A stretch of DNA of 63,782 nucleotides, counting the filler, from Folioceros fuciformis (lineage: Eukaryota): the NCBI GenBank assembly GCA_049999805.1. It is 12 parts of 12 records of this genome, joined end to end, with 100 filler letters (N's around TTAATTAATTAA, not from the genome) between each part and the next. Parts side by side here need not be neighbours in the genome. Positions count along the whole stretch, not along the records: positions 46,677 to 54,127 come from JBNGIO010001041.1; 11 more parts are not named here. One strand, 5' to 3'. Below the pieces are notes generated by a model. It was not told where the DNA came from. It saw only the letters and a program-made list of their open reading frames with translations, and did no database searches. Positions 50,622 through 51,951 of this stretch are shown piece after piece. Within the stretch, counting starts at the first letter, position 1; each line of letters starts with the position of its first letter. Position numbers and translations under genes: made by a program.

Positions 50622-51951
50622 ATGGCTGCGGCGTATGCCTCATCCGGCGCAGCGATCGCGGCGGGTGCAGCAACGGGCGATGTTGGGGCTGTGGTGAATG
50701 AGCTTTTATACTTGGCTGGATCTGTGCCCAGGTGCCGACAAGGTCGCATCTGTCCACAAGGCCATCCTCAGCATAGACAAGAATCCTGCCATGTTTGACA
50801 CCAAAGATCACGGGAGCAATGTGAGCAAATTCAAATGTGTAGCCCAAGACTGCGTCAGCCTGGTGAAGAAGTACAAGACGAAGAACTGGGTGGTGAGGAT
50901 TCTCTTGTCCTTGAAGCTGGAGAGTGACTTTGACAGCTTGGATGCGAGACTGGAGCAGTGCATCCGCTACTTCAAGCTTGACCTGCAGTTGGAGACTGCC
51001 ACTAGCGTCAATGCCATGAATGATGCAATGGTTAAAGAGTTTAGGCAATGCCAGCAGAATATAGACGAAGTGAAGAGCTTGCTACAACACAACCAGATCA
51101 GCCAAGCGCAGGACTCGTCGCCAGTTCCCGGTATCATTGTCTGTGAAGATTCGATCTACGGGGGCTACCTCCTGGAGGCAACCATGGAGGTATCAGGGAC
51201 GATTACTAACGTTCTCCTGTTCAACACGCAGCAGGCCAGCCATGAGGCAGCCATCATGAAGCTGGTCTCTGATTGCGACCACATTCTGCGGTTCTTCGGG
51301 ACATTCCTGCACGAAAACAACAGCTACAATGTCATGGAGAGACCAGGAGCGCAGATCCTCACCTTGGATGAACGGATCAAGATGGATCGTACCCTCACCG
51401 ACCCCGTATTGAGGAATGACTGGCGGCTTAAGAGGCAGGTGGCTTTGGACATCGCCACAAGGCTCGGGTACTTGCACAGTGCAGGCATTCTTCACAGGAA
51501 CCTGAGAAGCCCTAACATATTCCTCACAGATGACCACCTGCCCAAACTCTTCGGACTCTTCCAGGCAAGAATGAAGGTGAAGCCCAGTGAGAGGAAGTGG
51601 ACGAATGTGGAACAATTTCGGTGGGCTGCGCCAGAAATGCTTCCAAAAACGCGCCCTCAATTCAGCAAGAAATGCGACATCTTCTCTTTGGGAGCAGTTC
51701 TTTGGGAAATCATCACGGATGAGTACCCCTTCTCAGACATCGACAGTGCTATGCAGTTGCTGCCGCAGAGGATCGAAGGGGAGAGGAAACTTGAGTTCCC
51801 TGGCGATCAGGACACTCCTTTGCCAGGATTTTACGAGGAGTTTGTCCAAATTGCTGAAGACTGTATGGATGAGTTGCCAGACAACAGGCGTAAAATCGGC
51901 ACCATCATCGATCGCTTGACAAAGTTGCAACCGGAACAGATGCAGGCGTGA
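50622..51951 (+). CDS. Intronless MLKL-like protein: N-terminal helical bundle + pseudokinase; frameshift near 50730
   Basis: N-terminal KFKCVAQDCVSLVKKYKTKNWVVRILLSLKLESDFDSLDARLEQCIRYFKLDLQL resembles MLKL/RPW8/HeLo-type helices. Kinase fold lacks GxGxxG and the VAIK Lys, and has HRN for HRD and KLFGL for DFG, while RWAAPE, KCDIFSLGAVLWEI and the C-lobe are kept. ATG 50622 joins the long frame via a 1-nt shift (GSVP/GADKV). Confidence 0.8.

Follow-up and report, generated by a model that had tools for sequence, protein, structure and literature searches.

A frameshifted MLKL-like pseudokinase gene and its frameshifted kinase–ankyrin neighbour in Folioceros fuciformis: a probable recently inactivated two-gene module

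The window that we analysed is a 63,782-nt stretch of joined genomic parts from Folioceros fuciformis, and it contains a single copy of an MLKL-like locus at which two genes stand head-to-head. The MLKL-like gene lies on the plus strand and begins in frame 0 with 39 codons (50622–50738; M...SVPRCR) that correspond to helix 1 of an N-terminal helical bundle. The N-domain continues in frame 1 with what is left of helix 2 and with helices 3 and 4, and a brace comes next (together 50740–51129), as placed by the MLKL_N match and a homologue model; a TKL-type pseudokinase domain then runs to the stop codon at 51949–51951 (51130–51951; Pfam, PDB and structure matches). The neighbouring gene, on the minus strand, encodes a kinase followed by ankyrin repeats and is also divided between two frames: its 5′ part, from the N-lobe through the DFG motif (49539–50240; Pfam, alignment and tblastn), is parted by a 5-nt frameshifting insertion in the activation segment (49534–49538) from a 3′ part in another frame that carries the C-lobe, a Cys-rich middle region, ankyrin repeats (about 47569–48261) and the stop codon (47308–49533). 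Between the two start codons lies a divergent intergenic region of 381 bp (50241–50621) that was recorded without cover from the contig set X3, for which cover is absent over 49906–50511.

An earlier note on this DNA had read 50622–51951 as one protein. We found instead that the coding sequence runs in two frames, first 0 and then 1, split by a 23-nt deletion. Frame 0, from the ATG at 50622, reads MAAAYASSGAAIAAGAATGDVGAVVNELLYLAGSVPRCRQG... and meets a stop at 50796–50798 after 58 codons, and the frame-1 ORF extends from 50698 to 51951 (417 codons, 417 aa). The N-terminal string given in the note, DVGAVVNELLYLAGSVPG, is an artefact in which the frame-0 reading (...GSVP) is carried on in frame 1 (G...) by skipping one base; the true break lies slightly downstream of that junction, after ...SVPRCR, where eight aligned residues are absent.

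Contig comparison and homologue alignment place the break at 50736–50740. Run X8, from a relative (organism B) that differs from the window at 120 letters over 1,364 bases (~91% identity), carries 20 additional nt after 50736 and another 3 after 50737; with these 23 nt in place, the frame is restored and the missing C.x.KC..L.. segment is encoded. Over the whole MLKL-like gene, the only other indels in X8 are a compensating +1/−1 pair 3 nt apart. When read through, the window copy lacks exactly eight residues (alignment columns 205–212) at the junction of helix 1 and helix 2, the deletion having cost eight codons and a one-base shift of frame. Two of the deleted columns, K206 and L210, are invariant in the other 11 aligned members of the family described below. 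Of the 70 columns that do not vary among the other 11, the window copy deviates at 5, two of them on account of the deletion, and the corresponding figure for other members ranges from 0 to 13. No further stops were found in either the MLKL-like gene or its neighbour. A structure model of the read-through window protein was poor (pLDDT 54.3). Separately, 1 nt is missing at 51775 in a second relative (organism C, run X13).

The frame change is not a feature of one assembly. Runs X1, which may be the source of this sequence, and X3 both match the window across the break with 0 differences and 0 gaps, and X3 derives from the same organism but from a different study. A single X3 contig of 1619 nt (50526–52144, plus strand) is collinear with the genome, with 0 other letters and 0 gaps; we conclude that the gene has no intron and that this organism does carry the frameshift, the sister species retaining an intact form. 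One might still suppose that an intact, compact MLKL is encoded at 50622–51951 and that the change of frame is a sequencing error, since the frame-0 start corresponds by homology to the N-terminus of the family: 21 of its 39 residues are identical to the protein of the liverwort Riccia sorocarpa, counted from the internal Met 161 of that protein, and its D20, G22 and V25 columns are invariant across the family alignment. However, X1 and X3 agree with the window here without a difference or gap, and the difference from relatives is one of 23 nt that removes eight conserved residues and is no homopolymer slip, which makes this explanation extremely improbable. Nor does an intron account for the change of frame: no GT...AG pair within 50622–50740 joins frame 0 to frame 1 (judged by eye), and X3 is collinear. 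The contig set X3 carries the label 'RNA?', which is a guess, no contig set being on record as RNA; if X3 is RNA, ongoing transcription speaks against long-standing silencing.

The C-terminal domain is a kinase fold from which the catalytic residues are missing. In the 417-aa ORF, the Pkinase profile matches with an E-value of 3.6e-23, only from profile position 43 on, and the match ends at residue 407 of 417. The window sequence has HRN for HRD, KLFGLF for DFG, NVLLFNTQ without the β3 Lys and IYGGYLLEA without GxGxxG, and it keeps the C-lobe motifs RWAAPEML and CDIFSLG..WEI; the joint loss of four catalytic motifs with a preserved C-lobe, as reported in the earlier note, is thus plainly visible in the ORF. 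The same holds across the family. The glycine loop, the β3 Lys, the HRD Asp and the DFG Asp are each present in 0 of 12 sequences (the window and 11 homologues); the HRD position reads HRN, HRK, HRS or HKN and the DFG position PK[IL]FG[FL]x, and RWxAPE[MI]L and CDIFSLG..WE are nearly invariant. One activation-segment Ser is invariant in all 12 aligned members. Retention of HRD or DFG by relatives was looked for as counter-evidence and seen in none of the 12. Since the losses are common to all 11 homologues, we conclude that this is a selected, ancient pseudokinase and not the product of local decay, in agreement with what had been proposed.

Assignment of the fold to the TKL type also held, through Raf- and MLK-like matches in both sequence and structure. 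The nearest kinases to the window ORF by sequence are DLK (5e-16), CTR1, MLKL, BRAF, ZAK and MLK1, and a profile of the family matches MLKL, ZAK, BRAF, RAF1 and DLK. When the kinase domain of a predicted structure for the Diphasiastrum complanatum member was compared using VIA-align, CTR1 came first (Z 29.4, rmsd 2.1, 252 aligned residues) and BRAF scored Z 28.9. The window protein ends ~10 residues past the kinase fold (~10–25 in family members) and has no serine-rich tail.

A helical-bundle match at the N-terminus, on which the proposal of an MLKL-like protein had been made to depend, was found. In the window ORF, MLKL_N (PF22215) matches with an E-value of 3.5e-5 and 23.8 bits, short of the 27 bits that Pfam sets as its curated threshold; in the family, it is detected in 12 of 12 aligned members at E ≤ 0.01 (best 1.2e-11). 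The window match covers residues 40–109 of 417 and profile positions 56–125 of 142. Given that it begins at profile position 56, the first third of the N-domain is expected upstream, which is where the frame-0 peptide lies. Searched against the PDB, a profile of the N-domain alone matches seven animal MLKL sequences (1.2e-5 to 9.8e-4), with the next match at 0.018. An AlphaFold2 model of the Diphasiastrum member, a homologue and not the window copy, was built from 32 sequences (pLDDT 75.9, falling below 50 at residues 132–148), and its predicted helices span residues 2–33, 39–65, 72–98 and a long 108–167, followed by the kinase fold. In this model, a predicted brace helix joins the bundle to the kinase-like domain, and we take this arrangement to be probable for the family. 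An Atlas search with the N-domain alone gave scores of at most 0.90, to be read as leads only, for MLKL_N, MCAfunc, DUF7792 and RPW8 clusters.

These results bear on whether the window copy still makes something useful. A functional protein truncated at its N-terminus could start at Met 50698 or downstream and retain a three-helix remnant, acting perhaps as a regulator or dominant-negative form and not as an executioner. Consistent with this, an ATG 42 nt upstream of the break begins an uninterrupted ORF of 417 codons, conservation of the window copy is like that of intact members, and the probable transcript represented by X3 covers the ORF. However, the upstream ATG at 50622 opens the 58-codon frame that overlaps the Met 50698 start, the first 11 residues of such a product would be out-of-frame junk, the lost K206 and L210 sit in the very motif that aligns best with animal MLKL, and the neighbouring gene is broken too. 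We therefore hold a functional truncated protein to be unlikely.

The neighbouring gene adds a second lesion to the locus. Its kinase motifs (GSGGFGS, VAVKR, HGDLKGEN and DFG) are active-looking and non-RD (HGD), and a conserved Cys-rich middle region and C-terminal ankyrin repeats lie downstream. Using the Diphasiastrum protein P0016 as a tblastn query, residues 8–261 align at 50234–49539 and residues 262–983 at 49533–47335, with 5 bases in between. These 5 nt, at 49533, are left out in the relatives X8 and X13 and carried by X1 and X3. Homologues of the neighbour are continuous through the insertion site (DFGxS..R+xD.SY...), and after the 5-nt shift the first frame of the window copy runs into a stop at 49431. 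The N-terminal part of the kinase is nearest to Snf1/MARK/AMPK (E ~4e-11), and no RIPK is among its best 60 matches.

The pairing of the two genes extends beyond the window organism. In Riccia, the kinase–ankyrin protein R1sor_023912 and the MLKL-like protein R1sor_023913 have consecutive locus tags and are recorded with contigs of equal length, and for relatives B and C there are contigs that reach across the two genes. Searches turned up members of each family in Riccia, in Diphasiastrum and among unnamed ENA proteins, the ENA entries of either family giving 1,263,803 bases as their longest contig. The Diphasiastrum locus tags (12G versus 06G) assign the two families to separate chromosomes. 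In P0056, a protein without a name, a single chain contains MLKL_N, an HRN-type pseudokinase, an active kinase and ankyrin repeats, with only generic likeness to the neighbour family (28% in the kinase, 24% in the repeats).

Two frameshifts at one locus could also have arisen by accident and without connection, in a region that is decaying or under little constraint, with the kinase–ankyrin gene functionally unlinked to the MLKL-like gene. The separate chromosomes in Diphasiastrum favour such a reading, as does the fact that adjacency is documented only for the window organism, relatives B and C and Riccia. Against this, adjacency has been kept across the 60%-identity distance to Riccia, each gene carries exactly one disabling lesion with the rest conserved, and P0056 unites all of these domains, even if its resemblance to the neighbour family is generic. 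Weighing both sides, we consider unrelated accidents somewhat less than probable, and the case for joint loss of a functional pair, which is read from adjacency together with co-loss, is circumstantial.

To place the MLKL-like gene among known proteins, we relied on several searches. A word-seeded search gave 13 matches among 2,910 candidates, of which 11 have precomputed PF22215 plus kinase annotations and lengths of 443–611 aa; a second word-seeded search with alignment yielded no further members. The best match is Riccia sorocarpa (60% identity to the window), followed by Diphasiastrum complanatum (46%), Ceratodon purpureus (40%), unnamed proteins (39–40%) and Selaginella moellendorffii (35%), which has a second family cluster as well. 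Cluster look-ups identified P0003 as coming from the fern Pteridium aquilinum and P0033, an N-terminal fragment, from the leafy liverwort Calypogeia fissa. A profile search of 1.84 billion representatives recovered nine family clusters (E 4e-215 to 1.9e-71; about nine when counted at 50% identity), after which there is a sharp drop to multi-kinase proteins. The named hosts thus span liverworts, a moss, lycophytes and a fern, and with a liverwort as the best match, the suspected non-seed plant host was borne out. No seed plant, Marchantia or Physcomitrium is among the named members, most rows being nameless, such that absence from these plants is not implied.

Members of the family share a four-helix-bundle-type N-domain, a brace and a pseudokinase in ~445–475 aa, with no C-terminal tail. 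The description of a compact protein with MLKL architecture therefore stands at the level of the family (MLKL_N, brace and pseudokinase) but not for the window copy, which is frameshifted within its N-terminal bundle. A tree of 21 rows separates the plant family, as one clade (99/99), from proteins of Glomeromycotina fungi. Within this clade, the window sequence groups with Riccia (100/99), and the pair is joined by Diphasiastrum (98/96) and not by the moss clade; deeper placement is unsafe because the outgroup branches are long. The family is present in public databases under its Pfam label and is barely described in print. Our literature search for an MLKL_N plus dead-TKL family of non-seed plants found no describing paper, the supplementary tallies of PMC11218826 aside. 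That study, the nearest paper found, lists 'MLKL' among the NLR-associated classes of its 33 species in the accessible part of its text, and the family may be counted under 'MLKL' in its per-species NLRtracker tallies.

Taken together, the locus is probably a recently inactivated two-gene MLKL-like module, made up of an intronless MLKL-type gene of ~450 aa and a kinase–ankyrin neighbour, with one frameshift in each. Both genes are most likely recent pseudogenes that have lost function, apparently still transcribed and otherwise undecayed. Loss of the catalytic residues would predate the split between liverworts, mosses, lycophytes and ferns. If intact members work like their animal homologue MLKL, the pseudokinase may restrain the bundle until a signal sets it free, with phosphorylation of the invariant activation-segment Ser as a plausible trigger; the freed bundle would then oligomerise on membranes and cause ion flux or cell death. 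The neighbouring kinase–ankyrin protein is a candidate upstream partner in such a scheme. A more far-reaching version of the module reading is that early land plants had a two-gene necroptosis-like module, consisting of an MLKL-type executioner and a non-RD kinase–ankyrin activator, that survives in liverworts, mosses, lycophytes and ferns, was replaced by DUF1221-type MLKLs or lost in seed plants, and was lost as a unit here through two independent frameshifts. We put this forward as a tentative and rather doubtful scenario. A bolder variant still would link the plant family to the MLKL_N–kinase proteins of arbuscular mycorrhizal fungi through an ancient transfer between symbiotic partners.

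Several consequences follow. The data suggest a third, older plant family beside the seed-plant MLKLs (Mahdi et al., preprint) and the Poaceae fusions of MLKL_NTD to kinases (PMC11297308), as far as the accessible text of these two sources describes them. If members of the family prove to cause cell death or to control ion flow, the MLKL design would go back further and be more widespread among eukaryotes than assumed, and bryophytes, lycophytes and ferns would offer a simple system for the control of a membrane-attacking bundle by a dead kinase. The conserved neighbour and its joint inactivation provide a concrete candidate for an upstream kinase, and the locus can be viewed as a natural double knock-out beside an intact sister species.

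Among described plant proteins, the closest in layout are the seed-plant MLKLs. The preprint by Mahdi et al. (10.1101/681015) describes, in its accessible portion, an MLKL family 'conserved across seed plants', lists 48 seed plants, and gives the members a HeLo domain, a brace, a pseudokinase and a serine-rich tail with a role in immunity; this wording confirmed the earlier note's reference to a seed-plant family. Like AtMLKL1–3, the family described here consists of plant proteins with an N-terminal helical bundle, a brace and a pseudokinase. Unlike them, it lacks the serine-rich C-terminal extension and the DUF1221 N-domain, the annotation that the available part of PMC11297308 gives for AtMLKL (animal MLKL and the Poaceae MLKL-K proteins being annotated there as MLKL_NTD). 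None of 5 members at E ≤ 10 and none of 12 at E ≤ 0.01 gave a DUF1221 (PF06760) match, nor did the window ORF at E ≤ 1. No seed-plant MLKL sequence was among the matches of the word-seeded and profile searches. Similarly, AtMLKL3 (6KA4) is neither among the best 60 PDB matches of the family profile nor among the 15 N-domain matches at E ≤ 10, and in an Atlas feature search the streptophyte DUF1221 plus kinase cluster ranked 11th (0.95). The absence of DUF1221 and the fact that all significant PDB matches of the N-domain profile are animal MLKL uphold the proposal of a lineage distinct from seed-plant MLKLs, whose origin may be independent or may be older.

The Poaceae MLKL-K proteins and Pm13 (PMC11297308 and PMC10951266) are alike in being plant proteins in which an MLKL_NTD-type N-domain is fused to a kinase domain. 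According to the available text of PMC11297308, MLKL-K proteins occur only in Poaceae and have a putatively active Ser/Thr kinase, whereas in the present family all four catalytic features are missing from the kinase domain of each of the 12 sequences. With DUF1221 undetected, the tail absent and the kinase dead, the family fits neither of the plant groups described so far.

Outside plants, the next-best full-length matches after the family that align as a single stretch, among the 1.84 billion representatives, are Glomeromycotina proteins in which MLKL_N is followed by a TKL kinase and Sel1 repeats (E 1e-47 to 1e-37). Of ten next-best proteins that were looked up, seven are named Glomeromycotina, and MLKL_N was found in several. 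These proteins differ in that they have kinase motifs that score as canonical (Pkinase E 1e-34 to 1e-39) and Sel1 repeats, are fungal and fall outside the plant clade. The existence of Glomeromycotina MLKL_N–kinase–Sel1 proteins is noted in the accessible text of PMC8778642.

The neighbouring gene can be compared with a layout of its own. A kinase with C-terminal ankyrin repeats is the layout of the RIPK4/ANKK1 type, and the neighbour resembles it in having an N-terminal kinase and then ankyrin repeats, here beside an MLKL-type gene. It differs in that the N-terminal part of its kinase is nearest to Snf1/MARK/AMPK, in being non-RD and in its conserved Cys-rich middle region.

Lastly, the strongest resemblance is to animal MLKL, the executioner of necroptosis (4BTF, 6LK5 and 2MSV). 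The order of parts is the same (MLKL_N bundle, brace and TKL pseudokinase), the length is similar (~450–470 aa), and the motif C.x.KC..L...V at the start of helix 2 is common to both. The invariant activation-segment Ser of the family aligns with the S345/S347 region of mouse MLKL. The top two PDB matches of the family profile are full-length MLKL, namely mouse 4BTF (2.8e-27) and 6LK5 (5.7e-26); the match to 4BTF consists of separate N-domain (i-E 2.1e-5) and kinase stretches and that to 6LK5 of one stretch over both domains. Foldseek with the Diphasiastrum model also ranked 4BTF first (472 columns, identity ~16–20%), with low TM-scores because the orientation of the domains differs, and chordate MLKL clusters came first in the Atlas feature search (0.98). 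The differences are that the host here is a plant, that no RIPK3 or RHIM partner is evident and that the window copy is frameshifted. Judged by these comparisons, the family appears to be, among the plant groups, the one closest to animal MLKL in both domains.

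In the 21-row tree of the plant MLKL-like family and Glomeromycotina proteins, the liverwort MLKL-like sequences cluster with the lycophyte Diphasiastrum (branch supports 98/96) and not with mosses, while those of Selaginella fall into two clusters, both very divergent. Old paralogy or uneven rates could account for both the liverwort–Diphasiastrum grouping and the divergent Selaginella clusters. The deposited model of the Riccia homologue P0001 (Riccia sorocarpa R1sor_023913, 611 aa) carries ~160 additional N-terminal residues that are absent from all other members. Because the start of the MLKL-like family corresponds to an internal Met at residue 161 of P0001, this model is probably over-extended N-terminally.

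Within the neighbouring kinase gene, the 5-nt insertion (49534..49538, − strand) produces a perfect 10-bp palindrome, CCTCCGGAGG, at window positions 49531-49540 (− strand), which may be a clue to how the insertion arose. For the pseudokinase, the indels listed for the related organism C include a 1-nt gap at window position 51775, within the C-lobe, in a DNA contig from sequencing run X13.

Elsewhere in the window, an open frame at 38800-39654 (+ strand) encodes a kinase N-lobe (PK_Tyr_Ser-Thr, E = 2e-15) and gave no tblastn match with MLKL-like or kinase-ankyrin family queries. A DUF7138 domain (E = 3.5e-18) is encoded in an open frame of 510 codons at 55374-56903 (− strand), and a tRNA-Cys (GCA) gene, on which ARAGORN and Rfam agree, lies at 30667-30742 (− strand). 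Blocks of N occur at 11 sites from 14927 to 61330 (968 N in total), each consisting of two 44-N blocks with 12 bases between them; these pairs look like masked or withheld stretches, and none of the 11 is near the MLKL-like or kinase-ankyrin gene.

The domain classes of both genes in the MLKL-like/kinase-ankyrin pair are found together in a single chain in protein P0056 (1427 aa), which carries MLKL_N (Pfam PF22215) and ankyrin repeats together with two kinase-type domains, one kinase-like and of the HRN type, the second a canonical kinase. P0056 resembles the neighbouring kinase-ankyrin family only in a generic way, with 28% similarity over the kinase and 24% over the repeats.
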